49,378 nt of DNA from Elusimicrobiota bacterium (GTDB lineage: Bacteria; Elusimicrobiota; Elusimicrobia; Elusimicrobiales; UBA9959): assembly GCA_027340875.1 (NCBI GenBank), contig DAIENX010000043.1, forward strand, positions 1 through 49,378, read 5' to 3'. The notes below the pieces were generated by a model. That model did no database searches. It saw nothing but the letters and a program-made list of their open reading frames with translations, and was not told the origin of the DNA. Shown here piece after piece: positions 17,057-44,680 of the stretch. How positions within the stretch are numbered: the stretch's first letter is position 1; every line of letters begins with the position of its first letter. The position numbers and the translations under genes were made by a program.

Positions 17057-17749
17057 TCACTCTTTTTTTATGATGGAGATCTCGATGCGGCGGTTCTTCG
17101 CGCGGCCGTCGGCAGCGGAATTGTCGGCGATCGGCCGGTTATCGCCGTAGCCTATGCCGGCGAGCTGTTTCGACGGGATGCCCTGTCCTTCCATGAACCG
17201 CAGCACGCCGTAGGCGCGGGCCATCGAAAGCTCCCAGTTGGTGGAATATCTGCCCCTTCTTATCGGCACGTTGTCGGTGTGCCCCTCGATGACGATGTCG
17301 TTGGGGACCTTCTTCAGCTCTTCGGCTATCGGAGCCAGCACCTGCCTGGCATGCTCCTTAAGGTCGGCGTCGCCGGAGGCGAAAAGCACGCCTTCCGGCA
17401 GCACCAGCTTCATCTTGTGCTCGTTGGATTGTATCTGCACCAGATCGGCCATGTCGTCCGTTCCCATGGTCTTCTTGAGATTATCCTCCACCTGGGACTC
17501 CTGCTCCTGGGCCTTGGCCCGCTCTATCCGCTGAGAGTCCTCCTTCCCCCCGAACGCCTTTTGAATGTTCCCCAGGGATTCCTCATACTTGCGGCTCTTG
17601 GTCTTGTCCGTCCTCGCTATCGAAAAGGAAAAAAGGACGAGGAAGAATATCATCAGATAGCTCATCAGGTCGCCGTAGGTGACGGCCCACAGCGCCCCTT
17701 TGTTGAGCTGGTTCTCCACCTCGTCGCGTCTCTGCCTGTATACCGCCAT
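17057..17749 (-). CDS. motB: MotB-family stator subunit with OmpA-like peptidoglycan-binding domain
   Basis: WAVTYGDLMSYLMIFFLVL TM helix with the conserved Asp; EGHTDN, NWELSMARA and GRAKNRRIEI. Confidence 0.92.
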   Translation of the reverse strand: MAVYRQRRDEVENQLNKGALWAVTYGDLMSYLMIFFLVLFSFSIARTDKTKSRKYEESLGNIQKAFGGKEDSQRIERAKAQEQESQVEDNLKKTMGTDDMADLVQIQSNEHKMKLVLPEGVLFASGDADLKEHARQVLAPIAEELKKVPNDIVIEGHTDNVPIRRGRYSTNWELSMARAYGVLRFMEGQGIPSKQLAGIGYGDNRPIADNSAADGRAKNRRIEISIIKKE

Positions 17750-17832
17750 GTAGAACTCTCCTTACCCCGCGTTAGCGCGCTGCCCCTGCATCAGAGCTCC
17801 AGGGCCGCCGCCCGGACGGCCTGGCCGCATGA

Positions 17833-19350
17833 TCATTTTTCTCCGTTCTCATGCCTCAGCCTGGCAAGATCGGACACCAGCTGGGCTTTTTTTTCGGAGA
17901 TGATCGCGGCTTTTACCTCCAGCTGTTTCACCAGCCTGGCGGCGAACTCTACGTTCTTGCGCACTATCGCGCCGGAAACCCCGAGCAGCACCTCGAGATT
18001 GACACCCTTCAGCGCTTTCATCATGCCGTTGAGTTCCAACGCCAGCCCGGAGATAGCGGACTCCACGGCGGAGACCGCCGATGCGGCGTCGGATATCGCG
18101 GCCCGCCCGGAGGCGGAAGCCTTGAAGACGTTCATGGTCTCCTGCAGCTGCCCGGAAACGGAGGAGCGCAGCCGGGACTCGATCTCTCCCAGCCCGCGGG
18201 AGACCCGCTCGTCAGCGGCTTCGCCCGCCCTTGCTATGTCTCCGGAGAGCTTTTTCGCGCCCTCAGTCATCTCGCCGGAGAGCTTCTCCGCGCCCTCCTT
18301 GATGTCGCCGGAGAGCTTCTCCGCGGCGCCCAGGAATTCCCGCTGGACCTCGGAAACGCCCTGAAGCTGCGCGAGGATGGTCCTTGTGGCGGTATCGAGC
18401 CTTTCCCGGCCCTCCAGAGCGGCGGCGTCCACATGCTTCACGAGGCCTCCGGCCCGCTCCATGGCGTCGTCTATCGTCCTCCGCAGCTCGTCCCGGACAT
18501 CGGTCACCATCTCCTCCAGCCGTTCCTTGCCGGCGAAGGCGCTTATCCCCATCTCCTCGATCTTGGAGGACAGCGACTTCAGCCTGGAATCCACCGCGGC
18601 GGAAAGCTCTCCGATCCGGGATTCCAGCGCGCGGACCTGCCTGGGCGCGGAGGCGGCCTCGGCAGCCACGCTCTTCAAAGCCTCCTCCATGGCCCGGAAC
18701 CTCCCGGCCAGGGCCTCTTGCGCCGCGCCATGCGCCCGCAGCTTCTCCTGCAGTCTGGCATCCAGCACCTTAACCACCGCAGCGGCGATCTCCTCTGCCG
18801 AGACCTGCGGCGCCGGGGGAGGAGGCGGCTCCGGCGGCTTTTTGGAGGCCGCCGCGTACGCCTCCACCAGGCGTTTCTCCATCTCCTCCACCCTGGACCA
18901 GGCCTTCTGCAGCTGGTCATGCATCTGGCGGTCCAGCTCGGAGTACTTCTGCTGCTCCCTCACGACCTTCAGCAGTTCCTCTATCTCGCGCCTGGCGCCG
19001 GCCTTGGATTCCTCGATGTTCTTGGACTGGGCCGCACCCGCCAGCAGGAATTTCTCATGGAACTCCTTCAGCCGCGCCTCCATCTCAGAGATCTTGGACA
19101 GCACGGCAGGCGTCACCGGCGAAGGAGGCATGGCGGGAGGCGGGACCTGCGCGGAAAGCTTCTTCTCCAGCTGCCCGACGATATTGCGCTCCAGCGCTTC
19201 CATCTTCCGGTTAAGCGCGCTCAGCTGCTCGTCGGGGACCGCCGCCCTCGCCGGAGATGGGGGCGGGGCCGCTGGCGTCGGCTGCAGGGACTGATGGTCC
19301 TCGGAATGGAATAATCCGGAGAATAAAGAGCTTTTCTTAGTCGGTTCCAT
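17833..19350 (-). CDS. Cytoplasmic coiled-coil protein with proline-rich linkers (unknown function)
   Basis: GGAGG RBS before ATG 19350; E/K/L/A-rich helical sequence, three Pro-rich stretches, no signal peptide; sits between the rotor-like gene and motB. Confidence 0.75.
   Translation of the reverse strand: MEPTKKSSLFSGLFHSEDHQSLQPTPAAPPPSPARAAVPDEQLSALNRKMEALERNIVGQLEKKLSAQVPPPAMPPSPVTPAVLSKISEMEARLKEFHEKFLLAGAAQSKNIEESKAGARREIEELLKVVREQQKYSELDRQMHDQLQKAWSRVEEMEKRLVEAYAAASKKPPEPPPPPAPQVSAEEIAAAVVKVLDARLQEKLRAHGAAQEALAGRFRAMEEALKSVAAEAASAPRQVRALESRIGELSAAVDSRLKSLSSKIEEMGISAFAGKERLEEMVTDVRDELRRTIDDAMERAGGLVKHVDAAALEGRERLDTATRTILAQLQGVSEVQREFLGAAEKLSGDIKEGAEKLSGEMTEGAKKLSGDIARAGEAADERVSRGLGEIESRLRSSVSGQLQETMNVFKASASGRAAISDAASAVSAVESAISGLALELNGMMKALKGVNLEVLLGVSGAIVRKNVEFAARLVKQLEVKAAIISEKKAQLVSDLARLRHENGEK
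18242..18330. repeat. 33-bp tandem repeat (11-residue AEKLSGD/E units)
   Basis: CCGGAGAGCTT recurs at 18242, 18275 and 18308. Confidence 0.8.
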
Positions 19351-19361
19351 ATCGCCTCCCG

Positions 19362-20888
19362 TCAAGCGCCGGCCTGCTCATTGGCTATCATGGTCCCGGC
19401 CGCGGCGGCAGGATCGGCTATCCTCCCGTCCCTTATCAGCGCGGCGGCCGTCGCCAGTATCCGTTCCAGCGCTTCCTCCACTTTCTCCCTGGACGGCACC
19501 CCGTAGCTCATGCTCTGCTCTATCATCTGCCAGGTCTTGTCGGCCATCTGGGCCTTTATCTTCTGCCTTACCTCATCCGGGAGCTCGAAAAGGGCGGTGG
19601 CCCATTCTTCCGGCTTCACGGTGGTGGCCATCAGTGAAAGCCCCTTCTCGTCGAGGAACGCCAGGTCCTCCGGCATGAGGAGGCGTCGCCGCACTTCCGC
19701 CGCCAACTCAGGATGCTTCTTGCGGAGTTCCTCCAGCATCCCCTTCTTCGCGCGCAGATCTATGGCGGAGATGGCCTCCATCGCGCCGTCCAGACCGCCC
19801 ACCGCCCCGCTGAGGCGGCGCTCCAGCTCCTCTTTGAGCGTGCCGATTATCTCCGGCTCCACGAAACGTATCTTGGCCATGTTTATGACGACGTCGGACG
19901 AGAACTCAGGGGGGAGCGCCTTCAGGAACTCGGCCCGCACCTCCTGCGCCAGATGGGCCGCCACCAGGGCCACGTTGGCGGGGTCCTCCGTTACCATCAT
20001 GTTCACTAGGAACGGCACCTGGGAAGGCCGGATATCGAACAGCACCCTCCCGCTTTCCTCCGGCTCCTCTTTTCCCGGTCCCGTCAGCTGCGGCTTATCC
20101 GGAGAAGCGCCGGCGGCCGACGCCTCGATGCCTCCCGGGGCCGCCCCCTTGCCCAGGTCCATAGTTATCTGGTGACTCTGCTGGACCTTGGCCATCGTGC
20201 TCATCGCTCCGGCCAGCTTGAGGAAACCGACGGCCACGACTATCATGCCTATTATCCCCATCACCGCCAGCAGCACGTACTTCAGGACCATGCTTATCGC
20301 TTCGGGGGTGTACCAGATGGTCCTCCAGAGCGGGGCGAACGGCGCCTTTATCACGGAGAGCTGGTCCCCCCGCTTAGGGTCCAGCATCAGCACCTCGGAG
20401 ACCACGCGGCGTATATTCTCCGCGTCCAGTTCCGGCACGTCCCGGTTCACTATGATGCTGACGTTCATCCTTTTTACGAAGGCCGACGGATAGAGCATCT
20501 GCCTGTTATATGACTTGTTCTCCGTCCCGCCGGCGGCGAACGACGGGAAACCGGGCATCAGGTAATCCCCTGACTGCGCGTCGCCGCCGGCCGCCTGCCA
20601 CTTGAAAGGGTTGCCCTTGTCCTGCTCCAGCTGCGAGCTGACCTCGACCTTTTCGGTGCGGCTGAAGTCCATCACGGTCTCCAGTATCACCTTGGCCTGG
20701 TTCGGCCCCAGCAGCCTCACGAGCACGTCGTCGGCTTTCTGTTCCAGCGTCTTCTCGTACTTGGCCTTATCCTCGAAGGGCAGCGACTGCGCCGTACAGC
20801 GCGGCGCGGTCAGCGGGACCAGCGCTGAGGCCAGCGTCAGGACGACGCGGAAGTCCGGCCATGAATTTATCTTCCTCGGTTTCTCCAT
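19362..20888 (-). CDS. FliF C-terminal ring domain (RBM3)-TM-FliG middle/C-terminal fusion protein
   Basis: N-terminal signal-like segment. LLGPNQAKV...MDFSRTE and VKRMNVSIIVN...DPKRGDQLSVIKAPF resemble FliF RBM3. One TM helix follows. EDPANVALVAAHL (EHPQ-like), GG hinge and LAAEVRRRLLMPEDL (MFxFEDL-like) resemble FliG. Confidence 0.82.
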   Translation of the reverse strand: MEKPRKINSWPDFRVVLTLASALVPLTAPRCTAQSLPFEDKAKYEKTLEQKADDVLVRLLGPNQAKVILETVMDFSRTEKVEVSSQLEQDKGNPFKWQAAGGDAQSGDYLMPGFPSFAAGGTENKSYNRQMLYPSAFVKRMNVSIIVNRDVPELDAENIRRVVSEVLMLDPKRGDQLSVIKAPFAPLWRTIWYTPEAISMVLKYVLLAVMGIIGMIVVAVGFLKLAGAMSTMAKVQQSHQITMDLGKGAAPGGIEASAAGASPDKPQLTGPGKEEPEESGRVLFDIRPSQVPFLVNMMVTEDPANVALVAAHLAQEVRAEFLKALPPEFSSDVVINMAKIRFVEPEIIGTLKEELERRLSGAVGGLDGAMEAISAIDLRAKKGMLEELRKKHPELAAEVRRRLLMPEDLAFLDEKGLSLMATTVKPEEWATALFELPDEVRQKIKAQMADKTWQMIEQSMSYGVPSREKVEEALERILATAAALIRDGRIADPAAAAGTMIANEQAGA

Positions 20889-20913
20889 ATTGTCCACCTT
20901 TGGCGCCTTCCGG

Positions 20914-21651
20914 CTACAGATAGGACTGCAGCCTTCTCTCCACGACCAGCGGCATGCTGCCCTTCATGATCTCCAGCACGCCTTCGAGTATCATGGACTT
21001 CAGCCGCACTTCCATCCATATCCTGGCGCGCATCTTGCCGGCGATGGGCACGCAGACCATGTTGGCGAAGAATATGCCGTAGAACGCCGAGGTTATGGCC
21101 AAGGCCATGGCGGGGCCCACGCTCTCGGGGTTGGAGAGGTCTTTCAGCACGCCTATGATCCCTATGAGCGTGCCGAGCAGGCCGAACATCGGCGCCATCA
21201 CGCCCATGGTCCTGTATACGTTGGCCACCTCGTTCATGTCGTCCACGCCCTGGTTTATCTCCATCTCCAGCACCTCGCGCACGAACTTGTAATCGTTGTA
21301 CTCCAGCGCCGCGGTCGCGGCCCTGTTCAGAAAACCGCCCGCCACTGACGTGGAGGCTTCCTTGAGGGCCGCCAGCCCGCGCATGCGCGACTGTTCCGCC
21401 AGGGAAACTATGACCGGTATCAGCTTCTCAGGGGAGGCCTCGTCCTTCTCCCTGAATATCAGCCCGAGCTCGCGCACGGCCCGGACCACGAACTTAAGCG
21501 GGGTGTTGATCAGCGTGGCGACGACGGTGCCGCCAAGCACCACGACCACCCCGTGCATGTTTATCAGCGAAGCCGAGATCTGGTTGCCGGCGACCCCGGC
21601 GAGTATCAGCCCCGCGGCGCCACAGAAGCCCAACAATGTCGTAATGTCCAT
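20914..21651 (-). CDS. motA: MotA/PomA-family stator subunit
   Basis: MDITTLLG start, VVLGGT, RxxGLAAL, APMFGLLGTLIG, GPAMALA, FYGIFFAN and EGVLEI motifs. Confidence 0.92.
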   Translation of the reverse strand: MDITTLLGFCGAAGLILAGVAGNQISASLINMHGVVVVLGGTVVATLINTPLKFVVRAVRELGLIFREKDEASPEKLIPVIVSLAEQSRMRGLAALKEASTSVAGGFLNRAATAALEYNDYKFVREVLEMEINQGVDDMNEVANVYRTMGVMAPMFGLLGTLIGIIGVLKDLSNPESVGPAMALAITSAFYGIFFANMVCVPIAGKMRARIWMEVRLKSMILEGVLEIMKGSMPLVVERRLQSYL

Positions 21652-21669
21652 TATCTCCTCCGAATCGCC

Positions 21670-22611
21670 CTATACTCCGACCGGCACCTTGAACCAGAAA
21701 GTGGAACCCTTGCCCAGGCCGGGGCTGGTCGCCCCGATGTCCCCGCCGTGCGCGCGCACGACCTCCTGGGCGATGCAGAGGCCGAGGCCCCACCCCTGCT
21801 TACGAAGCTTCTCGTCCTTCTGATACTTGGCCTGGTAGAACTTCTCGAATATCTTCTTGGTCTCGCTGGGATGTATACCTATGCCGGAGTCCTTCACCAG
21901 CGTGTGCACGTACTTGCCTTCCCGCTTGAAGAACACCTCGACCTTCTTGCTCTCGGGAGTGAACTTTATGGCGTTGTTGACCAGGTTCATGAAGACCTGC
22001 GACAGCCGGAACTTGTCGCCGTCCACGATCACCCCCTCCGGGAAATCGTGCGCCACCAGGACCACTCCTTTCTTCTGCGCGTTTATCGACAACCCCGGCA
22101 GGATGTCCCGGGCCATCTCCGGGAACTCGAAAGGCGACTTTTCCATCTTGAGCTTGCCGGCCTCTATCATGGCCAGGTCCGTGAGATCGGAGATCAGCCT
22201 GCCCAGCTGATCGGTGGAGCTGACGATGTTCTTGAGGTACATGGCCTCCCGCTCCCCGACGTTCTTCTTCATCAGCAGCTCGCTGAAGCCCCTGATGGAC
22301 GCCAGCGGCGTGCGCACGTCGTGGACCACCATGGAGAGGAACTTGGACTTCATATCGTTGAGGCGCGCCAGCTCCTGGTTGGACAGCGAAAGCCTGTCCG
22401 ACATGGCCTCCAGCTGCTGCTTGCGCTGGAAAAGCTGTCCCTGGGCGATGGTGATGCGCTCCATGTACTGCTGTATGATCATGTTCGAGAAGTTCTGCCT
22501 GCTGTTGAAGAAAGCCGACTGCATGAAGCCGGACACCTGGGCCACAACGAGGAAGCCCGCCCCCAGCAGCAGCAGGGACATCGGGATAATGACTATCACC
22601 AGCATCTCCAT
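21670..22611 (-). CDS. Membrane-anchored histidine kinase (HisKA + HATPase), no obvious sensor domain
   Basis: N-terminal TM, HDVRTPLASIRG H-box, NLVNNAIKFT, DSGIGI and GLGL. Confidence 0.92.
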   Translation of the reverse strand: MEMLVIVIIPMSLLLLGAGFLVVAQVSGFMQSAFFNSRQNFSNMIIQQYMERITIAQGQLFQRKQQLEAMSDRLSLSNQELARLNDMKSKFLSMVVHDVRTPLASIRGFSELLMKKNVGEREAMYLKNIVSSTDQLGRLISDLTDLAMIEAGKLKMEKSPFEFPEMARDILPGLSINAQKKGVVLVAHDFPEGVIVDGDKFRLSQVFMNLVNNAIKFTPESKKVEVFFKREGKYVHTLVKDSGIGIHPSETKKIFEKFYQAKYQKDEKLRKQGWGLGLCIAQEVVRAHGGDIGATSPGLGKGSTFWFKVPVGV

Positions 22612-22623
22612 AGCTTCTCCGGG

Positions 22624-24336
22624 TCACCAGCCCTGCGTTTCCATGAACTTCCGCGTCACCTGGTCTTCGGGGTTCAGTTGCAGCGCCTTCCGGTAGGCGC
22701 TTTTCGCCTTCTCCTTGTCTCCCATCATGAAGTAGGCCGACCCCAGCCTGGTCCAGCTCACGGGGTTCTCCTCGTCGATAACGGAGACCTCCTCGCATTC
22801 CTTCGCGGCCGAGTCGAACTGCTGGATATAGAACCATTTGGCCGCCTTGCGCAGCTTCTCCTTTATAAGCGCCGTCCTGGGCATTATCTCCCCCCTGCGG
22901 ACCTCCATCTTCACCAGGCCGGCCGTTAAATACAGGTATTCCTCGAACAGGGGATCCCCGCGCAGGTCGGCGCCGAGCGCCGCATGGGCCAGCAGGAACG
23001 CCTTGAGGTCCTTGCCCTCCAGATAGGCGTCGATGGACTGCGCCGCGGTATCGGACTGTTCCGTCCGCCGGGAAAGGAGGGTCTCCCGGGACGGGATATC
23101 CTTCAGCCTCAGTCCGGAGATGATCTCGTCCAGGCGCTTCTCACGCCTTCCCCAGTCACCCTCCCGGAGGTTCGGCTCCAGGTTGAACGCTTTCTTGATA
23201 TTGGCGGAAGCCGAGACATAGCGGCGGGCCTCCAGGTCCTTGCGGGCCAGCTCCAGGAAATCCCTGGCGAAGAGCCCGAGCTTCTCTATCTTCTCCTTGG
23301 GGGCGATGAGCTTGGCATTTCGCACCCGCTTCGTGGCGCCGGCCAGAGGCTGCGCCGCCATCTGGGACCCGAGGCGCATGGAGACCCCTATCTTATGCAT
23401 GGCCCCCAGCTCGCCGAACGGCGACATCGAATAGTCTATATCCATCAATGAGAGCCTGAAGCCCACCCCGAAACGGACCCCGGAGCCCATCTGCTGGCCG
23501 GTGCGGTAGCCTGCCCTGAGGGAGAGCAGCTGGAAGGCCACGTATTCCGCTCCGAGCGAAGCGTAATACTTCTCGTCGTTGGAGAAGGTCTGGTCGAGGC
23601 TCAGGATCAGGCTGGCGCTCCCGCCGGGATGGGACACCCACGCCCCTCCGACGGTGGCGGACAGCGGCAGCGGGGATGAGCGCCGGTCGAACTTGAGGCC
23701 GGGGCCGATGTTCCGGACCGCCGCCGCTACGCGCAGCTCCTGGGCCGGCACTTTGCTCATCCAATACTTCGCCGGGCGTATATAGTAAACCGCCCCCAGG
23801 TCCAGGGCGGCGGTATCGGCCGCCGCGCTGTCGAGCTTTTCGCTTATGTACTTCAGCCCCGCCCCGACGTTAAGGACAGGGCGCTCGATCTCGTCCTTGA
23901 GCAGCGCGCGTCCGTACGCGGCGCCGATCGCCAGGTCCGAAGAGGCGACCTTGCCCGTCTTGACCCCCTGCGCGTCGTACCCCTGGAAAGGGGAGACGCT
24001 CAGGCGCGTCACGTTCACTCCCAGCGTGGAGCCGTAGCGCAGCGGATACGCGGCGGAGAGGTACTGCTGGGAGACGTCCTGCAGGGAATCGTTATAGGTC
24101 GCCGCCAGCTGCGCCGCCTCCACGCTGGCCAGCCCGGCCGGATTCCACCATGGCGAGTAGGCGTCCTCGGAAACCGAGGTGTAGGCTTCGCCCATGCCGG
24201 TACCTCGGGGGCTGGGCGAGAACTTCAGGAACGAGGCCGCCGCCGAGCCGGCGCTCCCGGCGCAGACGGGGAGACGGCAAAGCAGCGCCGTAAGGAATAC
24301 GGCAGCGGCAGCAGTTCCGCGGGTTCCTCTATTCAT
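22624..24336 (-). CDS. PorV/PorQ-family outer-membrane barrel with C-terminal TPR region
   Basis: Signal peptide, then FLKFSPSPRGTGMGEAYTSVSEDAYSPWWNPAGLA (PorV/FadL-like N-terminus), barrel strands ending HKIGVSMRLG, then helical/TPR repeats (WTRLGSAYF...ALQLNP). Confidence 0.8.
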   Translation of the reverse strand: MNRGTRGTAAAAVFLTALLCRLPVCAGSAGSAAASFLKFSPSPRGTGMGEAYTSVSEDAYSPWWNPAGLASVEAAQLAATYNDSLQDVSQQYLSAAYPLRYGSTLGVNVTRLSVSPFQGYDAQGVKTGKVASSDLAIGAAYGRALLKDEIERPVLNVGAGLKYISEKLDSAAADTAALDLGAVYYIRPAKYWMSKVPAQELRVAAAVRNIGPGLKFDRRSSPLPLSATVGGAWVSHPGGSASLILSLDQTFSNDEKYYASLGAEYVAFQLLSLRAGYRTGQQMGSGVRFGVGFRLSLMDIDYSMSPFGELGAMHKIGVSMRLGSQMAAQPLAGATKRVRNAKLIAPKEKIEKLGLFARDFLELARKDLEARRYVSASANIKKAFNLEPNLREGDWGRREKRLDEIISGLRLKDIPSRETLLSRRTEQSDTAAQSIDAYLEGKDLKAFLLAHAALGADLRGDPLFEEYLYLTAGLVKMEVRRGEIMPRTALIKEKLRKAAKWFYIQQFDSAAKECEEVSVIDEENPVSWTRLGSAYFMMGDKEKAKSAYRKALQLNPEDQVTRKFMETQGW

Positions 24337-24355
24337 AGTAAGCGCACCTATGAAT

Positions 24356-24398
24356 AGTCTATAAGCGGAAGCCCCCTGAATCCCGAAGAAATTATGAA
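24356..24398 (-). promoter_or_regulatory. Island promoter motif copy 1 (drives porV-like to motB operon)
   Basis: TTCATAATTTC-TTCGGGATTC-N16-TAGACT. Confidence 0.7.
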
Positions 24399-24474
24399 GT
24401 TCCTGCGTGCGTAGGAAGGGCCCCGGGGGCGCAGTTCCTGTCCGTCACGCCAGCGGTCAGATGGAAGCAGGCGC

Positions 24475-24567
24475 TCACAGACCGCGCGCCAGCAGGTAGC
24501 AGCTGATCGCGGAGAAGACCAGCAGGAGAGCTATGACCGCCCTGTCCCAGAGATCACGGCGTTCCAT
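24475..24567 (-). CDS. 30-aa single-TM small protein
   Basis: MERRDLWDRAVIALLLVFSAISCYLLARGL; ATG overlaps the stop of the upstream receiver gene (TGATG). Confidence 0.45.
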   Translation of the reverse strand: MERRDLWDRAVIALLLVFSAISCYLLARGL

Positions 24568-36911: not shown

Positions 36912-36957
36912 ATTACCGACCTTCACCCCGCCGCCGGATATTTTTAAAACGAATGGC

Positions 36958-36990
36958 ATTATAGCTGAAACCTCCGCCGAGAATCCCGAA
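36958..36990 (-). promoter_or_regulatory. Island promoter motif copy 4
   Basis: TTCGGGATTC-N17-TATAAT upstream of the giant fibre gene. Confidence 0.78.
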
Positions 36991-36993: not shown

Positions 36994-38409
36994 CTACTTG
37001 TTCCTGAGCCATGCGGCCACTTTGTCGCCCGAATTCAATATCATTATGTACTCTCCCGAGTTCTGCGTGCCCGCCACTTCCATCTTCGCGCGCGGCGCCT
37101 CGGTGCCTATGCCTACGGCGCCGGAGGTGGAGACCACTACCTGGCGGGCGGCGCCCGTGGAAACGGAAAAGCTATAGGCCTGGGTATCCGCGCCCCTGAC
37201 CTCCAGGCGGGCGGACGCGCCCGTCATGCCTATGGCGACGTTGCCGGTGGGCTCCACGGAAAGCCCTTCCTGGGAAGACGAGCCTTTAAGTCTGGCCGTC
37301 CCCATGACCTTCAGGGAATTATCCACGTCAAGATCGGTCAGGGTGGCGGAAGAGACATAAGCCACTCCGGGCACTTTAAGGATATTATTAATATTGAGAT
37401 CGTTGGCGGTGCCGGACGACACATAGAACGTCGCCCCGCTCTGCAACGTATCCTGATCATGTATTGAAAGCGGGTCGACCTCCAGCCCGCCGGCCGCCCC
37501 GCTGCCGCAGACCCACTGGCCTCCGCTCAACTGCAGTATATCGCCGTTGGCGCAGCCCGACTGGTTGAGCTTGGCCCTCGTTATCGAATTATCCGCGAGG
37601 TCCTGGTTCTGTATCGTCCCGTCGACTATGTGCGTCGAAACTATCACCGCGCCTATCCTGTCCCCCGAAAGGGAGCCGAGAGATATCCGTGACGCGTTGA
37701 GATCATATATCCCCGAGCCGTCGCCCAGCAGCCACCCCGCGCTGACCGAAGAAGAAACGCCGATATATCCCATCACCGTATGGGTGCCTAACGAAGTTAT
37801 AGGGTCCGTGCCCGTACCGGCGTGAGTAAGCGCATGCAGTCCCGGCACCCCGGAACCTGAGGTCGGCACCCAGACCGCCCCGTTCCAGAACTTCACCAGG
37901 CCGGAAGAGGAGTCGTACCAGAGCTCCCCAGGCGCCGACGCCGTAGGCGTTGAAGCGGCCGTGGTGTAGCGCTTGCCGGAAAGCATCAGGGAATCTATCG
38001 AATACGGAGAGGAGGTGAGCTCCTCCCTAGGCGACATGCGGTTGCCTTCGATCTCCAGCTCAAGCCACATGCTGCCGGTCTCCCAGTCCGCTATGGACGG
38101 CTCCAGCGTTACACGGAATATTCCTGTCGAAAGGTCGACATTGTACGCGGGACTGGCCCAGAGCTCCGTGGCGGACGTGGACGAATCATAGATGCGGAAG
38201 ACCATGGAGCGGCTGCCGTTGACCAGGAACCCGTTCTGGCGCAGGTTGCCCTGGTAGGTGAACTTGACGGGAACTTCGGCCGCCGCGGCAGCGGGGAAGA
38301 GAATGCCCCCAGCCAGCAGCAACAGCGAAACAGGCATGGCAAGGCCAAGCCCGGTTAAGAGCCTGCCCAGCGCTTTTTTTGCCGTTTCGACCGTTTTCAT
38401 ATGCCGCAT
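36994..38409 (-). CDS. Secreted fibre-like protein
   Basis: Signal peptide; VPVKFTYQGNLR...SPYS N-terminal domain, PGELWYD...KFWNG, GDGSG and GNVAIG/GAVGIGT repeats. Confidence 0.75.
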   Translation of the reverse strand: MRHMKTVETAKKALGRLLTGLGLAMPVSLLLLAGGILFPAAAAAEVPVKFTYQGNLRQNGFLVNGSRSMVFRIYDSSTSATELWASPAYNVDLSTGIFRVTLEPSIADWETGSMWLELEIEGNRMSPREELTSSPYSIDSLMLSGKRYTTAASTPTASAPGELWYDSSSGLVKFWNGAVWVPTSGSGVPGLHALTHAGTGTDPITSLGTHTVMGYIGVSSSVSAGWLLGDGSGIYDLNASRISLGSLSGDRIGAVIVSTHIVDGTIQNQDLADNSITRAKLNQSGCANGDILQLSGGQWVCGSGAAGGLEVDPLSIHDQDTLQSGATFYVSSGTANDLNINNILKVPGVAYVSSATLTDLDVDNSLKVMGTARLKGSSSQEGLSVEPTGNVAIGMTGASARLEVRGADTQAYSFSVSTGAARQVVVSTSGAVGIGTEAPRAKMEVAGTQNSGEYIMILNSGDKVAAWLRNK

Positions 38410-38513: not shown

Positions 38514-39440
38514 TTATTTCTTCTTTATCCAGGCCGCCAGCGAGCCGCCGGAATAGAACTTGGCGGCGTAGTTGCCTGAGGTTCCCACGCTGTCCACGGA
38601 GAGGGCCACTCCGGCCTCTACCGCCCTGTTCATCGCGTGGGTGTCCGTCACCGCGTTGCCCAGCTGCGCGTTGCCGTTGACGGTAAGGTCGTTGGTGACG
38701 GCGGCGTTCCCGCCGGTAACGGACAGTCCGTTCTGGGCCGTCAGCGCGCCTACGGCGGTTATGGCGTCTCCGGCCGCGTCGCCCAGGTTCACGTTGCCGG
38801 TGAACTTGGCGGCGCCATTGACCCCCAGACCGTCGGTACCGTCGCCGAGTATGGTCATGGACGAGCCGCTGACCATGGTTATGTTGGTGGCCCCGGCGTT
38901 CTGTATGAACTGGGAATCCACCAGGCCGGTGCCGGCCGCGTTCACCATCTGCAGACGGTAGGGACTGCCCAGCGAGGCGAGGCCGGTGTTATCGGTCTCC
39001 CAGGTAAGGAAGCCGTTGGCCGAAGCCTTAAGCACCTTGCCCGCGTTGGCCGCGCCGTAGTCGAAGTACAGGTTGGTCAGCGCGCCGGCGTTGTTCATGA
39101 ACTGCACCGTGCTCTTTAGCACGCCGTAGCCCTGCAACTCCACCGCCTGCGTGAAGGTGGAACTGCCGGCCACGTACATTCCGCTGGATACCTGCACGTA
39201 CCCGTTGGCGAATATGTTGCCGGGAGCCACCGGAATACCGAGCGCCGGGGCGGACTGGGTGGACCCGAAGACCGTGAAGCCCTTCACCTCCAGGTCCGGG
39301 TCCAGCGCCGTTCCGCCGGTGCCGAGCACGGTGAGGTCGTCCTCTACTCCGAACTCCGTACCATTGTCCGCGGCTTGCGCCAGACGGCCCGCCGCCGCGA
39401 CGCATACCAGGGCAATAATCACTTTCGTTGCCTTCTTCAT
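38514..39440 (-). CDS. Secreted fibre-like protein
   Basis: AGGAGG RBS, signal peptide, N-terminal domain closely similar to that of the giant protein, G/T/N-rich beta repeats. Confidence 0.78.
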   Translation of the reverse strand: MKKATKVIIALVCVAAAGRLAQAADNGTEFGVEDDLTVLGTGGTALDPDLEVKGFTVFGSTQSAPALGIPVAPGNIFANGYVQVSSGMYVAGSSTFTQAVELQGYGVLKSTVQFMNNAGALTNLYFDYGAANAGKVLKASANGFLTWETDNTGLASLGSPYRLQMVNAAGTGLVDSQFIQNAGATNITMVSGSSMTILGDGTDGLGVNGAAKFTGNVNLGDAAGDAITAVGALTAQNGLSVTGGNAAVTNDLTVNGNAQLGNAVTDTHAMNRAVEAGVALSVDSVGTSGNYAAKFYSGGSLAAWIKKK

Positions 39441-39486: not shown

Positions 39487-40587
39487 CTACCAAATCACCA
39501 TTAGTTTCCCGGTCTTCGAGTTCGAGCCGGACACCACCCGCCAGATATAGACCCCGCTGGCCGCGCGTTGGCCGCCGGAGGTGCGCACGTCCCAGCTGAG
39601 TTTCGGGAGGGGCAGCCCCTCCGGGATGACCAGTTTACGCACCAGGCGTCCGTCGAGCGTGTAGATCTCTATATCCCCGGTTTGGGGAACGTTGGTAAAA
39701 GTGATGCCGTCCGCTTCCGTGCCGCTCTGGCCGGCCCCGCTACCGGCTGCCGGGCCGTTAGGCCTGAACGGGACGGGGAAGGCGTAGGTATGCTTCACGG
39801 CGTCGTCGACGGAGCCCAGCAGCGAGTATACCCCGGGCGACATGAAGGGGACGGAGACAGTGCGCGAAGCCTTGTCGAATATGGCCCCGGGGACCTTGGT
39901 CCACATTGCCAGTTCCTCGTCCAGTTGCCAGGTACGTATGGTGTCCACCCTTACCGACGGGAAGGACCCGTCCAGGACGCCGTCGCCGTCGTCGTCCTGG
40001 TAGCGCAGGGAGAGGTTTCCCGCCTTCAGCAGGGGCTTGCGCCAGAAGTCCTGCTCGTCGAACAGCCCCATCTCGGTAGCATTTCCTGTGAAAAGACGCG
40101 CCCAGGCCCCCTCGTTGGCCTCCATCTTCGAATTGGCCGTATCTATGGTCCCGGCATCCACGCTTAAAGGCCTGGCGCCCGGATCGTCGTTAAGCGTAAT
40201 ATCGAACGCTTCCTTGTCCACCGCGCCGGCGGGGAGCGTCAGGGCCGCGTTACCGGAGTTGAACTTCACCGCCGCCGGAAGACCTTTCTGGAAGGTGAAA
40301 TGGGGCGGGTTATAGAAACCGCTCCTGTTAGAATAAGCGCCGGAGCGGGAGTTCCCGATGCCGGCCGGCAGCGAGATCTGGCCCGAGGCGCCCTTGGATG
40401 AATACTCTCCGCCGCTCAGCAGCCCCCCCCCGCTAAGCCTGGCGGAGGATTCAAGCTGGTATTCTCCGGAGGAGGAGATAAGGGCCGGGGCGGCCGGAGG
40501 GAACGCGGCGCAGAGCGACAGGACCGCGAGCGTGCGAACAGCCGGAGCTAGGAGGCGAAAGGTTTTTTCTTCCCCAGTAATATGCAT
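39487..40587 (-). CDS. Secreted protein with T9SS type-A-CTD/FlgD-Ig-like C-terminal domain
   Basis: YAFPVPFRP...IEIYTLDGRLVRKL...WDVRTSGGQRAASGVYIWRV...GKLMVIW at the C-terminus; signal peptide. Confidence 0.78.
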   Translation of the reverse strand: MHITGEEKTFRLLAPAVRTLAVLSLCAAFPPAAPALISSSGEYQLESSARLSGGGLLSGGEYSSKGASGQISLPAGIGNSRSGAYSNRSGFYNPPHFTFQKGLPAAVKFNSGNAALTLPAGAVDKEAFDITLNDDPGARPLSVDAGTIDTANSKMEANEGAWARLFTGNATEMGLFDEQDFWRKPLLKAGNLSLRYQDDDGDGVLDGSFPSVRVDTIRTWQLDEELAMWTKVPGAIFDKASRTVSVPFMSPGVYSLLGSVDDAVKHTYAFPVPFRPNGPAAGSGAGQSGTEADGITFTNVPQTGDIEIYTLDGRLVRKLVIPEGLPLPKLSWDVRTSGGQRAASGVYIWRVVSGSNSKTGKLMVIW

Positions 40588-40688: not shown

Positions 40689-41375
40689 TCAGAGCGGGCC
40701 GAAGAAGCGGAACCCCTTGCCGGAAACGGACTGCAGCGAGTCGGCCAGTTCCCGCGGGAGCTTGCGCCGCAAATTGAACATATGCGTGTCCACCAGGTTC
40801 GGCACGGCCACGGTGCGCCAGACCTGGGACAGTATCTCTATGCGCGACATTATGCGCGGACTGTTCTTGGCCAGGGCATAGAGCAACTCGAACTCCCTGC
40901 GGGTCAGGTCGTGCAGCGGCTCGCCTTTGTACCGCGCCATCTGCGAGCGGACCTCCATCTCCAGCGCCCCGGCTTTCAGCGAAGCCCCGCCGCTTTTATC
41001 CATCGCTACTCGCCGCAGCAGCGCTTTCGCCCACATGACCAGCTCGTCCATATTTATCGGCTTGATCAAATACTGGTCCACTCCGGCCTGAAAGCCTCGG
41101 CCCTTATCGGCAATAGCGTCCTTACCGGTCAGGACGATTATGGGAATGTCGGACAGGGAAGCGTTGGCGCGCACCCAGCGGGAGATCTCCAGGCCAGAGC
41201 CGTCCGGAAGCGCGATATCCAGCACGATCAGGCATGGCGCGCCGGCGCTCATATACGCGAGCGCTTCCTTTACGCTGGAAACGCAGGCCGCCCTGAATCC
41301 CGCGTCTTCCAGCGCGGCCTTCACCAGTTCTCCCGTTTCCTTGTGGTCTTCGACTATAAGAACGCTGTCGCTCAT
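40689..41375 (-). CDS. OmpR/PhoB-family response regulator
   Basis: Receiver (VLIVED, LDIALPDGSG, KP) plus winged helix (LTRREFELL, VDTHMFNLRRKL, GKGFRF). Confidence 0.93.
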   Translation of the reverse strand: MSDSVLIVEDHKETGELVKAALEDAGFRAACVSSVKEALAYMSAGAPCLIVLDIALPDGSGLEISRWVRANASLSDIPIIVLTGKDAIADKGRGFQAGVDQYLIKPINMDELVMWAKALLRRVAMDKSGGASLKAGALEMEVRSQMARYKGEPLHDLTRREFELLYALAKNSPRIMSRIEILSQVWRTVAVPNLVDTHMFNLRRKLPRELADSLQSVSGKGFRFFGPL

Positions 41376-41439: not shown

Positions 41440-41685
41440 AACGAGATAAGGACCTGGAAGGTCTCTATTTAAGCGATTTGATGTTCAGGTCTGACGTAAA
41501 CCGAAAGGCACCTGCATGCAGGCCCTTTGCTTCATGCGTCCCGACATTTAAACTCGTAGTATTTACGTTCTCGTTCCGGTAAAAGGCGGTCAGGCAGCTG
41601 CGTGAAGGCTTTTCTTAAAAATAAATTTAGTGGACCCGTCCCGGGGCTTGCATTAAAATATTACTCCGCGGGAACAGAACTTGAG

Positions 41686-42405
41686 ATGGGAACATTGGGA
41701 TTTCGCATCATCACTCCCGACGATAATATCGTCGGCCGCTGGCGCAGGGCCTTCGTCAGGGAAGGCTGGCGCGTCGCCGCGGCCGTTCCATGCCCCGAAG
41801 AACCCGCCATGTCCGGCGCCGAAGTGGACCTGATAGAGATCGGGCCGGACCTCTGCAGCACCCCGGAAGACCTTAAGAGGATATTGGACGAGAGGGAGCC
41901 GGTCTCCGCCATAGTGTTCGGGGACCAGGCCAAATCCAGTAACAAGCTTATAGCCGACCTCCTTGAGGCCGGCGCCGACGACTTCGTCTACAAGAACATA
42001 GACGAGCGCATCCTTGTAGCGAAACTGAAGGCCCATATAAGGAGACTTATGCCGGCGATATCGGAAAGGTCAGCCCGAGCCACTTCGAGCTGCGGGGCGA
42101 TAGAGGTCGACCGCCTGAGACACTCCGTGAAGGTACAGGCGGCCAAAGGCAGGCGCACCGAAATACTGAACCTCACCCAGCGCGAGCTGGACATACTCAC
42201 GTTCCTTATCGATCACGAGAAGCAGGTGGTCTCGCGAGAGACGATGCTGGAGAGGATCTGGGGAGAGGGAGCTGTAGACGTCTATTCGGAATGCGTGGAC
42301 AAGCACATAGAGTCCCTGCGGCGCAAACTCGGGCTTTGCGGGAAAAAGATACGCACGGTATACGGCGCCGGCTACATGTTCAACGGAGAGAGCCCCGTCA
42401 AATGA
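41686..42405 (+). CDS. OmpR/PhoB-family regulator with atypical receiver domain
   Basis: Winged helix LTQRELDIL...VDKHIESLRRKL...TVYGAGY and AGADDFVYK present; the phosphoacceptor position reads VDLIEIG. Confidence 0.85.
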   Translation: MGTLGFRIITPDDNIVGRWRRAFVREGWRVAAAVPCPEEPAMSGAEVDLIEIGPDLCSTPEDLKRILDEREPVSAIVFGDQAKSSNKLIADLLEAGADDFVYKNIDERILVAKLKAHIRRLMPAISERSARATSSCGAIEVDRLRHSVKVQAAKGRRTEILNLTQRELDILTFLIDHEKQVVSRETMLERIWGEGAVDVYSECVDKHIESLRRKLGLCGKKIRTVYGAGYMFNGESPVK

Positions 42406-42842
42406 AGAATCCCGTTCTCCGCATACTCTCCATAGATGACGACCCGTCGTGCCAGCGGGTAGTGGCGCAGTACATGACGATAGTCGGGGGGCACATGGTC
42501 GAGACCGCCCTCAACGGTTCCGAGGGATTAAAGAAGGCCGCGGACATAAAACCCGATGTCATACTGCTGGACATGGCGATGCCGGACATGAGCGGCGCGG
42601 AGGTGCTGGAATCGCTCCATTCCGACCCCGCCACCAGGCATATCCCGGTGGTCATACTTACAGGCTCGGAGCTGATGGACTCCGGTTCCGCGCTTTACAA
42701 GAACACGAACCTGAAGCATATAGCGCACAAGCCGGCGATATTCGAGGACCTGCTGAGGAAGATAGAGACGCTCCTCTTACATGCCCCCGGCGCGTCGGAT
42801 ACCGGCCCGCGCCCAGATCTGACCGACTGGAAAAAATACTAG
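42402..42842 (+). CDS. Single-domain response regulator
   Basis: ILSIDDD, PDVILLDMAMPDMSG, ILTG and HKP; ATG overlaps the upstream stop. Confidence 0.9.
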   Translation: MKNPVLRILSIDDDPSCQRVVAQYMTIVGGHMVETALNGSEGLKKAADIKPDVILLDMAMPDMSGAEVLESLHSDPATRHIPVVILTGSELMDSGSALYKNTNLKHIAHKPAIFEDLLRKIETLLLHAPGASDTGPRPDLTDWKKY

Positions 42843-42854: not shown

Positions 42855-43256
42855 ATGCGCATACTGATAGCCGAGGACGACGATAACTTCAGGTCGCTGA
42901 TAACCGAAGTGGTCAGCCAGGCTGGACACGAGGCCGCGGCGGAACCCAACGGCCGTCTGGCCTGGGAAAGACTGCTGCGCGAAGGCGCCGACATGCTGAT
43001 CACCGACATCAACATGCCGGAACTGGACGGCTTCGGCCTGCTCCGGAACGTCAGGGGAAGCGACGAATACGGGAAGATCCCTGTGCTGATGCTGACCATC
43101 AGGGAACTGGCGGAGGACCAGGTGGCCGGCTACGACACCGGCGCCGACGATTATCTGACAAAGCCTTTCGCCAACGAAGTGCTGCTGGCGCGGATAAAGG
43201 TCCTGGAGCGGAGGATACGCCGGGCCGCTCCCCGCAAAGATGGACCGGCGGCTTAA
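42855..43256 (+). CDS. Single-domain response regulator
   Basis: ILIAEDD, DINMPELDG and GADDYLTKPF. Confidence 0.92.
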   Translation: MRILIAEDDDNFRSLITEVVSQAGHEAAAEPNGRLAWERLLREGADMLITDINMPELDGFGLLRNVRGSDEYGKIPVLMLTIRELAEDQVAGYDTGADDYLTKPFANEVLLARIKVLERRIRRAAPRKDGPAA

Positions 43257-43905
43257 GATACTCTCCAGCGACGACGACGAGGGGATACGCGCGTTCCTCT
43301 TCAGTCTTCTCGCGGAACAGGGCCACGAAGTGGAGTTCGCCAGGGACAGCGACGAGGTGTTCAAGAACCTCGGCCGCTCCAGGTACGATCTGCTCATACT
43401 GGACGTGAACACGCCGGGACTCAACGGCTACAAGGTGGCCGAAAAGATCACGTCCAACATAGTGAACCGGCCCAAGATCCTGATCTTCACGGCCAGGGAC
43501 ATAGAGGAGGAGAACTTCCAGTTCGTCGTGAGCGGGGCTGACGCGGTACTCCGGAAAGGAGCCTCCTGCGAGCGGATCCTGGAGGAGATAGAGAGGATGT
43601 TCCCAACACAACCCGCTCCGCCTGACCCGGCGCAGCCCCCGGCCGCTCCAGAAGAGAAAAAGCGGAAGAAGATCAACGAAGACCTGGAGTTCTGCCTGTC
43701 CAGGCTTACGCAGGTGGAGGACGGCATAGCCGCGAAGAACATGCGCTACGAGGAGTTCATCCGCGACCTCCTGCGGGAGAAGCAGCGCACCGAGAGGAAC
43801 TACCTGGAGTTCAAGCGCATCGAAGCCGAAGTGCTGAGAATGAAGAGTTGGGGATACGCGCTTGCCACGGTGGCGATACTAGCGCTGATAAAGGCCCTGT
43901 TCTAG
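43240..43905 (+). CDS. Receiver domain + coiled coil + C-terminal TM helix
   Basis: ILSSDDD, DLLILDVNTPG, FTAR; Pro-rich linker; helical segment; C-terminal WGYALATVAILALIKALF. Confidence 0.85.
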   Translation: MDRRLKILSSDDDEGIRAFLFSLLAEQGHEVEFARDSDEVFKNLGRSRYDLLILDVNTPGLNGYKVAEKITSNIVNRPKILIFTARDIEEENFQFVVSGADAVLRKGASCERILEEIERMFPTQPAPPDPAQPPAAPEEKKRKKINEDLEFCLSRLTQVEDGIAAKNMRYEEFIRDLLREKQRTERNYLEFKRIEAEVLRMKSWGYALATVAILALIKALF

Positions 43906-43932
43906 CGCCGCGGAAGCGGCGCCATACCCGGA

Positions 43933-44304
43933 ATGAAAAAAGCCCTGGTGGTGGACGACAGCATCAATTTCAGCACGCTTCTCCAGTGCGCGCTCGAGGA
44001 CGACTTCGAGGTGTATGCGGCCGCGGACGGCGCAGAAGGGCTCCGGATGGCTTCGGAACTGCGGCCGGACATAATCTTAATGGACGTGATGATGCCGAAC
44101 ATGTCCGGGATAGAGATGGCCCGCGCGCTCACCGCAGAAGAAGAGACCCGCAGTATCCCCGTTATCGTGCTCACGGGAAGCCATCTCGACAAGGGCGTGC
44201 CCGAACTGTTCAAACTTGAGCGCAACGTCCGCCGCTTCCTGAGCAAGACGACGCCCGTGCTGGACATACTCGGGGCGGTAAAGGAAGTGCTCGATGGCCG
44301 ATAG
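43933..44304 (+). CDS. Single-domain response regulator
   Basis: LVVDDS, PDIILMDVMMPNMSG, VLTG and LSK. Confidence 0.9.
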   Translation: MKKALVVDDSINFSTLLQCALEDDFEVYAAADGAEGLRMASELRPDIILMDVMMPNMSGIEMARALTAEEETRSIPVIVLTGSHLDKGVPELFKLERNVRRFLSKTTPVLDILGAVKEVLDGR

Positions 44305-44680
44305 CGCAAGGAAGAAGATAATGATAGTGGACGACAATGTCCAGTTCATCGAGCTGATGAAAGGGCTCTTCTCGGATGAGTTCCATATAGAGACCGCCTG
44401 CAACGGTTTCGAGGGCCTCGGAAAGGCGATAACGTTCTCCCCTGAACTGATAATGCTCGACGTGAACATGCCCGGCATAACCGGCATAGAGTTCGCCCGC
44501 CGGCTATCCTCCCGCTCCGAAACGGCGGGGATCCCGATAATCGTGATAACCGCCAGCGACTACAACAGCCTTACGCAGAGCCTGCTGCAGAACGAGCACA
44601 ACGTAAAGATCTTCATGACCAAGCTCTCCCCGCTGGAGACCATACGGGAAAAAGTAATGTCGGTCATAAAGAAGGGCTAG
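44294..44680 (+). CDS. Single-domain response regulator
   Basis: IMIVDDN, LIMLDVNMPGITG, VITA and MTK; apparent paralog of the preceding gene. Confidence 0.9.
   Translation: MADSARKKIMIVDDNVQFIELMKGLFSDEFHIETACNGFEGLGKAITFSPELIMLDVNMPGITGIEFARRLSSRSETAGIPIIVITASDYNSLTQSLLQNEHNVKIFMTKLSPLETIREKVMSVIKKG

Follow-up and report, generated by a model that had tools for sequence, protein, structure and literature searches.

A candidate non-flagellar rotor-stator machine with a PorV-like barrel partner, encoded by a conserved operon in Elusimicrobiota

Introduction

FliG and flagellar-type MotAB are usually treated as parts that serve solely to turn the flagellum. What might they do in a genome in which flagellar export, axial and C-ring families find no match? 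This question is raised by a six-gene operon at positions 17057-24336 (minus strand) of a stretch of DNA of 49,378 nucleotides, the whole 49-kb contig C111 of an Elusimicrobiota genome (G000; 2.8 Mb in 112 contigs), hereafter referred to as the window. The genome is a metagenome-assembled genome (MAG) with a completeness of 92.45% and a contamination of 5.49%. The stretch is contained in four DNA sequencing runs, all from one study of a mine-drainage metagenome, and in no listed RNA run. The question extends beyond this bacterium: in its pertinent sections, a survey asks, for non-motile species, what role rotor proteins play in the 11% that possess them (10.1101/2024.12.05.626484). According to the sections of another study that deal with motility, free-living non-flagellated Elusimicrobiota possess numerous motAB, flbD and fliG homologs of unclear role, and the motility of magnetotactic Elusimicrobiota is an open question (10.1101/2022.07.08.499144). 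Here we propose that the operon encodes a non-flagellar, ion-driven rotor-stator machine which would operate across the cell envelope.

Gene content and conservation of the motor operon

The operon contains, in the 5'->3' direction, genes for a PorV-like barrel with a TPR tail (PorV-TPR), a histidine kinase, MotA, a fusion of FliF and FliG parts, a coiled-coil protein and MotB, separated by intergenic gaps of -4 to 83 nt. A first-pass annotation, made from the letters of the window alone, had proposed this minus-strand arrangement, and it is confirmed by the open reading frames (ORFs) together with Pfam and NCBIfam profiles:

22624-24336, minus strand: PorV-TPR; NCBIfam PorV_fam (NF033709), 162 bits versus a cut-off of 90
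21670-22611, minus strand: histidine kinase; Pfam HisKA and HATPase_c
20914-21651, minus strand: MotA; Pfam MotA_ExbB, 78.2 bits
19362-20897, minus strand: FliF/FliG fusion; Pfam YscJ_FliF_C 33.4, FliG_M 50 and FliG_C 59.9 bits
17833-19365, minus strand: coiled-coil protein, 510 aa; no family over cut-off, without transmembrane (TM) segment or signal peptide
17057-17749, minus strand: MotB; Pfam MotB_plug 46.2 bits and OmpA 74.7 bits; one TM helix

For comparison, 38 related loci were found via the rotor protein in MAGs titled Elusimicrobia, Elusimicrobiota, Elusimicrobiales, Elusimicrobiaceae or 'bacterium' bins. Twelve of these loci are interrupted by contig ends (L012, L025, L027, L028, L030, L034, L039, L041, L042, L043, L045 and L048). 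By tblastn, the complete six-gene set was recovered in the order of the window at 22 of the 38, so the linkage of motor genes with porV-TPR, which the first-pass annotation had singled out for checking in relatives, holds. Three further loci (L019, L026 and L044) possess every operon gene except a detectable match to the fast-evolving coiled-coil gene, and in L019 and L026 a gene of the coiled-coil protein's cluster is present after all. The order becomes barrel-TPR, kinase::rotor, coiled coil, MotA and MotB in class-level relatives (L057-L059), while families f5 and f7 retain the same six components in rearranged order. Additional genes are found occasionally: a receiver gene lies within the operon in L035, L038, L040 and L048. 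The reading frames are intact across the 38 loci, and the genes in synteny with the motor locus are housekeeping genes (IleRS, LspA) rather than those of a defence island. Judged from sequence, then, this is a complete, conserved and non-flagellar rotor-stator set with new partners, and the six proteins probably form one machine.

Two side observations were made at these loci. At L049:5729-10819 the fusion gene is present in two copies, in the order barrel, kinase, fusion, MotA, fusion, coiled coil, MotB. Genes with FGE-sulfatase domains occur near the motor operon in three relatives (L017:872-1936, L019 and L022); this family presumably includes the ring lipoprotein GldK/PorK of type IX secretion systems (T9SS).

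Rotor, stator, coiled-coil protein and kinase

The fusion protein was examined in an alignment of 33 orthologs (A1) and in an AlphaFold model with a predicted local distance difference test score (pLDDT) of 75.4. It begins with a hydrophobic segment, either a signal peptide or a first TM helix, that carries an Ala-x-Ala-type site. The periplasmic part is a FliF RBM3-like ring domain of ~170 aa (residues ~37-205), modelled as an alpha-beta-beta unit, a disordered stretch (89-133) and a beta-beta-alpha-beta unit. It is followed by a TM helix (208-230), a juxtamembrane stretch (235-246), a Gly/Pro linker and an all-helical FliG M+C region (~290-500). In a profile search against the PDB, residues 297-498 matched FliG MC (1lkv, E 8.8e-36) and residues 43-186 a FliF ring chain (9yh6, E 2.1e-7), with matches to further FliF ring chains at residues 270-309 (8z5s) and 382-440 (6scn). 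Foldseek ranked FliG first, followed by the RBM3/S-ring of Vibrio and Salmonella FliF (E ~1e-5; TM-scores by target 0.55-0.61). RBM1, RBM2 and FliG-N were absent by all four approaches, namely Pfam, the structural model, the PDB profile search and Foldseek.

Several interface elements of FliG have been retained. The Gly-Gly linker (G367-G368) is invariant in the 33 sequences, and in an alignment to the FliG of T. maritima, K454 and E460 of the torque helix correspond to R281 and D288/289 of E. coli, residue numbers that are quoted in PMC12505986. The most conserved segment of the rotor is the juxtamembrane cytoplasmic stretch MAKVQQSHQITM (residues 235-246), which is nearly invariant in the orthologs; it gave no match to a known motif, and the kinase, the coiled-coil protein or the stator might dock there.

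MotA (245 aa) has four TM-like segments and aligns end to end (residues 1-245) to solved structures (9luc, E 8.2e-35; PomA 8brd/8bri, E 4e-34). Among NCBIfam models it scores 162.7 bits with PomA versus 24.3 with TolQ and 17.9 with ExbB, although all equivalog cut-offs were missed. R89 is conserved in 35 of 36 MotA orthologs, and the channel aspartate of MotB, D27, in all 29 that were aligned. The predicted MotAB pair is a stator of the flagellar type, complete with plug, channel Asp and peptidoglycan anchor; stators of that type form a clade that is described as flagellum-associated in the relevant passages of PMC12505986. Taken with the rotor features, this makes it very probable that the operon encodes a rotor-stator pair that works outside the flagellum.

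A MotAB-like motor that senses a breach of the envelope is also a part of Zorya-type anti-phage systems, and the MotB of the window does match the ZorB models of PADLOC (best 88.2 bits), as is expected of any MotB. However, none of the ZorA, ZorC and ZorD models in PADLOC matched MotA, the fusion protein or the barrel, MotA lacks a long tail and aligns over its full length to flagellar MotA/PomA, and there is no defence island around the operon. A Zorya-like role is very improbable.

The coiled-coil protein is conserved only at residues ~45-170, the remainder being a variable coiled coil with 11-aa tandem repeats. It matched no family in Pfam or NCBIfam, and its best score in the ESM Atlas (0.87) amounts to no more than a lead. 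Alignment of its profile to those of the coiled-coil proteins of paralogous loci in the same genome (see below) with hhalign gave probabilities of just 5% and 3%, and these proteins are therefore alike in kind and position only. At the DNA level, three tandem 33-nt repeats, of 11 aa each, are located at 18236-18334 of the gene.

The kinase has a single N-terminal TM helix and no sensor domain. Its identity is 82-88% in near relatives, and its gene belongs to the operon at every locus long enough to show it. In two of the class-level relatives the kinase and the rotor share one open frame (L057, 826 aa; L058, 944 aa) in which HisKA, HATPase_c, FliF_C, FliG_M and FliG_C are all recognised. Such long frames (821-956 aa) occur in eight genomes of two families, and all four long database forms tested with Pfam have HisKA and HATPase_c N-terminal to the rotor part. 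Since the kinase can be fused to the rotor protein, it would appear to work on the rotor.

A rotor and stator without a flagellum

Profiles for FlhA (PF00771), FliP (PF00813), rod/hook proteins (PF00460), flagellin (PF00669) and FliMN_C (PF01052; FliM itself, PF02154, was not searched) gave no match in the genome, while the searches for FlhA, FliP, rod, flagellin and FliMN_C had matches in the same four flagellated genomes out of 14 named control genomes. The scanned ORFs of the window likewise contain no flagellar export, axial or C-ring family. The first-pass annotation had noted this lack for the window, and the whole-genome search it had suggested extends it to the MAG. The genome does contain five FliG_C and six MotA_ExbB matches.

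A survey of 301 sampled Elusimicrobiota genomes from 97 genera gave a consistent picture. The fusion gene is present in 104 genomes and 65 genera, and 101 of these 104 genomes are without FlhA, which was found in six of the 301; the two genes occur together only in G064, G242 and G121. Two large families with small genomes, f2 and f14, are nearly devoid of the fusion (1/88 and 1/89). When the fusion protein was used as the query of a protein search, the best 120 of 159 matches were all from Elusimicrobia, had the same architecture and were named 'hypothetical', 'FliG C-terminal domain-containing protein' or 'flagellar motor switch protein FliG'. Outside the phylum, one full-length relative was found in Candidatus Saganbacteria, and there are Atlas leads for Cloacimonadota, Bdellovibrionota, Bacteroidota, Balneolota and others.

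Could these genes be the decaying, functionless leftovers of a flagellum that has been lost? The presence of flagellar export genes in a few members of the phylum (FlhA, 6/301) would agree with it, but the frames are intact in 38 loci, catalytic and interface residues are invariant, several paralogs exist per genome, and conservation extends to partners and a promoter that are not flagellar. Moreover, in G064 a fusion-type gene with MotAB behind it exists alongside FlhA, so that the module is found together with flagella and cannot be the mere residue of a lost one. Decay is extremely improbable, and that flagellar rotor and stator parts are reused outside the flagellum is well supported.

The PorV-TPR barrel and its predicted contact with the rotor

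The outer-membrane partner lies below the PorV cut-off of Pfam (24.9 bits versus 27). Its structural model (pLDDT 79.5) consists of a barrel (~75-322), a disordered linker of ~30 residues (324-354) and a TPR solenoid (347-568). In Foldseek the barrel was closest in fold to PorV chains of the F. johnsoniae translocon complexes (8gl6_F, E 5.6e-16; 6h3i_F), with FadL next.

The first-pass annotation had suggested complex prediction for the fusion ring with the stator, the barrel and the coiled coil; it was run for the TPR tail with the RBM3 domain. TPR residues 345-570 co-folded with rotor residues 36-206 scored 0.36 (median of runs at 0.41, 0.02 and 0.36), compared with 0.01 for the best of three controls; agreement among the runs extends to at least 7% of contacts, and the pLDDT of the partner is no lower than 55. 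By rough count, our own alignments having been used, the mark for complex scores is reached by 116 of 157 solved complexes and two of 215 mismatched pairs; 18 of the 157 solved complexes, and both passing mismatches, reach it with scores of 0.60 or less. The prediction hints weakly that the TPR tail may touch the RBM3 domain of the rotor.

A promoter element shared by the motor, cargo and regulator operons

The sequence TTCGGGATTC (minus strand), followed 14-17 nt on by a TATAAT-like hexamer, occurs in exactly seven copies in the 2.8-Mb genome. Five of the seven exact copies are situated in intergenic gaps of the block that surrounds the motor operon. The form GAATCCCGAA, with up to one mismatch, has 10 matches in the window versus 3.25 expected, a number reached in none of 100 shuffles; the shared promoter motif of the first-pass annotation is thus real. 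The copies relevant here are:

24378-24387, minus strand: promoter element TTCGGGATTC, then TATAGA, 42 nt upstream of the PorV-TPR start
26385, minus strand: promoter element, one mismatch, before the PAS kinase
27289, minus strand: promoter element, before the receiver pair 26419-27149
36981, minus strand: promoter element, before the fibre-like protein p1817
40639, minus strand: promoter element, before the CTD protein p366
41430, minus strand: promoter element, before the OmpR-type regulator 40689-41375

The predicted element heads the motor operon, two fibre/cargo operons and the regulator operons. In 27 of 30 ortholog loci (all but L014, L023 and L044) it is also found, with up to one mismatch, 42-79 nt before the inferred start of PorV-TPR. 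Before fibre genes it is seen in this window only, the cargo genes of relatives mostly running off the locus. In five ortholog loci the element is an 11-bp tandem pair, which we take to be the pattern of binding sites of OmpR/PhoB-type regulators. The OmpR-type proteins encoded at 40689-41375 and 41602-42405 may be candidate binders of the TTCGGGATT repeats. A scan of 16800-28400 for sigma-70 promoters and terminators yielded no more sites than in shuffled sequences.

Fibre-like proteins, cargo and regulators upstream of the operon

Upstream of the motor operon lie genes for large secreted proteins and two groups of regulators. The protein-coding features of this block, including one with the sorting C-terminal domain (CTD) of T9SS cargo, are:

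39487-40587, minus strand: p366, T9SS type A sorting domain; TIGR04183, 27.3 bits versus a cut-off of 23
38514-39440, minus strand: p308, fibre-like; related to p1817
36994-38409, minus strand: p471, fibre-like; C-terminal repeats in common with p1817
31506-36959, minus strand: p1817, repeat fibre-like; internal repeats, signal-peptide-like N-terminus
28786-31506, minus strand: p906, Big_5 (Pfam); signal-peptide-like N-terminus
28318-28773, minus strand: 151-aa secreted protein; signal-peptide-like N-terminus
24567-25034, minus strand: receiver (Pfam)
24949-26334, minus strand: PAS kinase (Pfam)
26419-26784, minus strand: receiver (Pfam)
26781-27149, minus strand: receiver (Pfam)
40689-41375, minus strand: OmpR-type regulator (Pfam)
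41602-42405, plus strand: Trans_reg_C (winged helix) with a degenerate receiver, 16.6 bits (Pfam)
42291-42842, 42855-43256, 43240-43905, 43933-44304 and 44294-44680, plus strand: five single-domain receivers (Pfam)

Most of what the first-pass annotation had claimed for this block stands. Its T9SS-CTD-like protein is p366, which exceeds the cut-off of TIGR04183. Its three related fibre-like proteins are p308, p471 and p1817, Gly/Ser/Thr-rich repeat proteins with signal-peptide-like N-termini that are related by identity and repeats (the N-terminal 69 aa of p1817 and p308 are 65% identical). Of its ten receivers, nine exceed the Pfam cut-off and the tenth, at 41602-42405, is degenerate; the two kinases are present. 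The lectin-like protein was not confirmed: for p906 Pfam returned Big_5 alone, and nothing matched the C-terminal 120 aa. In L018, L033 and L046, the genes upstream of the operon include some for large proteins that end in a counterpart of the last 64 aa of p906.

What lies upstream varies among relatives. Nine of the 30 ortholog loci have a large protein gene there on the same strand, coding for a Kelch, fn3/CARDB or YadA-like protein or an unknown protein of 586-2060 aa, and the remaining loci have regulators or unrelated enzymes upstream of the barrel. In L057 a 2223-aa LamG-fn3 protein with a CTD-like end (FlgD_ig, 34.2 bits) is encoded directly upstream of the motor's barrel gene. Homologues of the regulator genes at 24567-27149 precede the operon in near relatives.

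Paralogous modules and type IX-like components in the same genome

The genome contains further loci of this kind. On contig C76, genes for a CTD protein and a fibre-like giant are followed by those for a barrel-TPR protein, a HAMP kinase, a fusion protein, a coiled-coil protein with a C-terminal HATPase_c domain, two receivers, a Cache-PAS kinase, MotB and MotA. C30 encodes a fusion with a TPR tail, an 813-aa coiled-coil protein, MotA and MotB. On C63, genes for MotA, two MotB proteins and a TPR protein are found beside those for a 2592-aa fibre-like protein, a Kelch-fn3-CTD protein and a PorV barrel. The MotA/MotB pairs of C30 and C81 have an identical MotA_ExbB score (99.2 bits) and near-equal tblastn figures; either strain variants or duplication of a region could account for this in a bin with a contamination of 5.49%.

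Components reminiscent of type IX secretion are abundant, with 16 Por_Secre_tail and 29 PorV_fam matches in the genome. Roughly two dozen genes for PorV/PorQ-family barrels were noted (for example C11:16581-17804, C3:41427-42556 and C52:5847-7146), and most PorV-family genes are directly preceded by a T9SS-type CTD gene, forming a repeated cargo and barrel cassette. A 1784-aa ORF on C14 (L054:5515-10869, minus strand), which adjoins an LptF/LptG gene, has partial matches to SprA (TIGR04189; 81.9 and 40.7 bits, cut-off 200), a profile that no control genome matched. It could encode an SprA-like translocon in a phylum not credited with a T9SS. GldM (TIGR03517) and GldL (TIGR03513) gave no match in the genome at E up to 0.1, in searches for which no genome among the 14 controls exceeded the cut-off either. 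The search for sprA and gldKLMN that the first-pass annotation had proposed hence returned a partial, sub-cut-off SprA match and none for GldL or GldM, in searches that lacked a positive control.

With this many CTD proteins and barrels, the partial SprA ORF and no GldM or GldL match, one could imagine that MotAB-FliF/G replaces GldLM/PorLM and powers all CTD secretion through an SprA-like translocon. The distribution of the genes does not favour such a general role: families with PorV barrels are mostly without the module, and the genome has several paralogous modules, each with its own barrel-TPR protein, which points to dedicated use; nor did the GldL/GldM searches have a control match over the cut-off. 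A general energiser of secretion is improbable.

Mechanical or signalling output

The reading that we prefer is mechanical. MotAB would turn, or push on, a ring built from the fusion protein, whose periplasmic collar would engage the TPR tail of the barrel. Ion flow through the inner membrane could in this way perform mechanical work on a carrier in the outer membrane that handles CTD cargo, adhesin-like giants and fibres, much as GldLM/PorLM does for type IX secretion and gliding, or as TonB-ExbBD does. The kinase would ride the rotor and, together with CheY-like receivers, control or report its state; it may also feed the OmpR-type regulator that drives the shared promoters. We put the probability that the machine's output takes this mechanical form, with the barrel and surface proteins as its targets, at roughly 0.4-0.45.

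The first-pass annotation had gone as far as to infer that repurposed flagellar parts energise the export, assembly or movement of surface fibres. The reuse is borne out by the lack of a flagellum and by the conserved gene set, while the action on fibres is plausible only. The link to fibres is favoured by the shared promoter, by fibre and CTD genes beside two other MotAB loci (C76 and C63) and by the CTD protein encoded next to the barrel in L057.

Several observations count against mechanical work on surface fibres. Genes similar to p1817 are present in just four of the 38 related loci, near relatives carrying regulators upstream instead, so that of the synteny that had been predicted the PorV link is sound and the fibre link patchy. 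No recognised sorting domain was detected in p906, p1817, p471 or p308, and these proteins therefore have no known route onto a PorV carrier. Of the 301 genomes of the phylum, 277 have PorV-family barrels, families without the motor included; in the two families with a single fusion gene each they are found in 88/88 and 65/89 genomes. PorV proteins are thus abundant in motor-poor families and as such do not need the motor. At L020 the barrel, kinase, fusion and coiled-coil genes are present, and MotA and MotB are missing at the site. The EHPQR patch of FliG reads E-D-P-A-N here (followed by R344), and MotA position 97 is Lys in 34 of 36 orthologs versus E96 in PomA, a charge reversal, with Glu or Asp as the next residue in 36/36 (the PomA numbers, R88 and E96, are presumptive and were placed by counting on the MotA alignment); the interface therefore does not fully match the flagellar one. 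The complex prediction for tail and rotor was no stronger than the scores given above, the assembly, rotation and contact of the machine are read from predicted proteins and models, and the source genome is an incomplete MAG with some contamination. Finally, no gene is better conserved than that of the kinase, which in two families forms one protein with the rotor; this would suit a signalling device too.

In such a device the output would be a signal: the barrel/TPR protein would report an event at the surface, the stator and rotor would alter the kinase, and the receivers and the OmpR regulator would switch the regulon. Comparable logic underlies TonB-dependent trans-envelope signalling, surface sensing by flagella and Zorya. 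A trans-envelope sensor is consistent with the constant presence of the kinase in sufficiently long loci, its lack of a sensor domain and its 82-88% identity in near relatives, with the kinase-rotor frames of eight genomes, and with the C76 locus, where the coiled-coil protein ends in HATPase_c and a Cache-PAS kinase and two receivers are encoded beside MotB. The receiver genes inside four operons, the ten receivers of the block and a promoter under self-regulation agree with it too. Yet a sensor has no obvious need for a conserved torque interface, a plugged proton channel or a ring-forming domain; the large, variable surface proteins that recur by the barrel gene fit cargo handling; and the T9SS motor also has a two-component partner, so that the kinase is compatible with mechanical work. 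Taking both sides together, we regard a mainly signalling output as a serious rival, if somewhat less likely than the mechanical one.

Returning to mechanical work, a more specific form of it would combine the kinase-rotor machine and PorV carriers into a gliding or surface-conveyor motor for adhesin fibres, convergent with GldLM, existing in cargo-specific copies and also outside the phylum. This extended version is doubtful.

Relation to known systems

With the core of the flagellar motor, in which a MotA5B2 or PomA5B2 stator drives FliG on the MS-ring of FliF, the operon shares MotA, a MotB with plug, Asp and OmpA-like domain, FliG M+C with the Gly-Gly linker and charged torque helix, and the RBM3 of FliF. 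It differs in that FliF and FliG form one chain without RBM1, RBM2 and FliG-N, that export gate, rod, hook, filament and FliM/N are missing from the genome, and that the partners are the PorV-TPR barrel, the kinase, sometimes rotor-fused, and the coiled-coil protein.

Other ion-driven motors, namely ExbBD-TonB, TolQR, AglRQS-Glt and ZorAB, are alike in that a stator driven by ion flow acts on outer-membrane or periplasmic partners, some of them in signalling. They act via connectors of the TonB, TolA, GltG or ZorA-tail type. To our knowledge, no such 5:2 motor uses a FliG torque ring.

The T9SS and gliding machinery of Bacteroidota, in which PorP/SprF are carriers beside PorV and PorXY is the two-component system, resemble the system described here in the ion-driven inner-membrane motor, the PorV-family carriers, the CTD cargo and the motor-linked two-component system. 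They differ in the motor, which here is MotAB with FliF/G (GldLM gave no match), and in the barrel, which here has a TPR tail; furthermore, Elusimicrobiota are outside the phyla for which a T9SS is described in the literature that we found. The cargo genes directly upstream of barrel genes resemble type B CTD proteins with PorP-like partners, as these are portrayed in PMC9143113.

A natural FliF-FliG fusion is known from Chlamydiaceae. As described in the passages of Bergeron 2016 (PMC4768692) that concern it, this protein of ~330 aa has an RBM2-like domain, one more RBM and FliG M only, and is discussed together with the injectisome. Both fusions join a shortened FliF to part of FliG in bacteria without flagella; the one encoded in the window is set apart, going by that description, by RBM3, by FliG M+C with the torque helix and by its own MotAB.

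Full-text literature searches retrieved no paper describing the operon. Its gene content points to an ion-driven envelope machine not described before. The six-protein module offers a concrete, conserved and testable answer as to what rotor proteins do without a flagellum, with a one-chain rotor, an outer-membrane partner and a kinase. It is a stripped-down rotor-stator pair for structural and single-molecule work, it gives models for the origin or dismantling of the flagellar motor a new case to consider, and it may explain the movement or attachment of non-flagellated free-living Elusimicrobiota, magnetotactic ones included. The contribution of this window lies in the shared promoter that ties together fibre, cargo, regulator and motor operons, in the ten-receiver block and in the comparison of paralogs within one genome.

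Other features of the window

Inside the minus-strand array, the ORFs at 27146-27787 and 27950-28321 (minus strand) look spurious. The ORF at 27407-28273 (plus strand, 288 aa) looks real, has a normal composition and is the sole plus-strand gene there; it matched no family, and no homologue turned up in the related loci. Three consecutive plus-strand ORFs of 361, 684 and 949 aa within 3245-9161 gave no family match. The Rfam scan detected only two tRNAs, at 6313-6384 (at the start of the third of these ORFs) and at 47101-47184.

A gene for an IS200-like Y1 transposase occupies 16320-16961 on the plus strand, and after it, at 16962-17056, the palindrome AAAGGTACCTGGTACCTTTT stands twice. Twelve related loci have a homologue of the transposase gene close to the motor operon, in many cases between MotB and IleRS. 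The gene has the look of a domesticated transposase associated with repetitive extragenic palindromes rather than a recent insertion.

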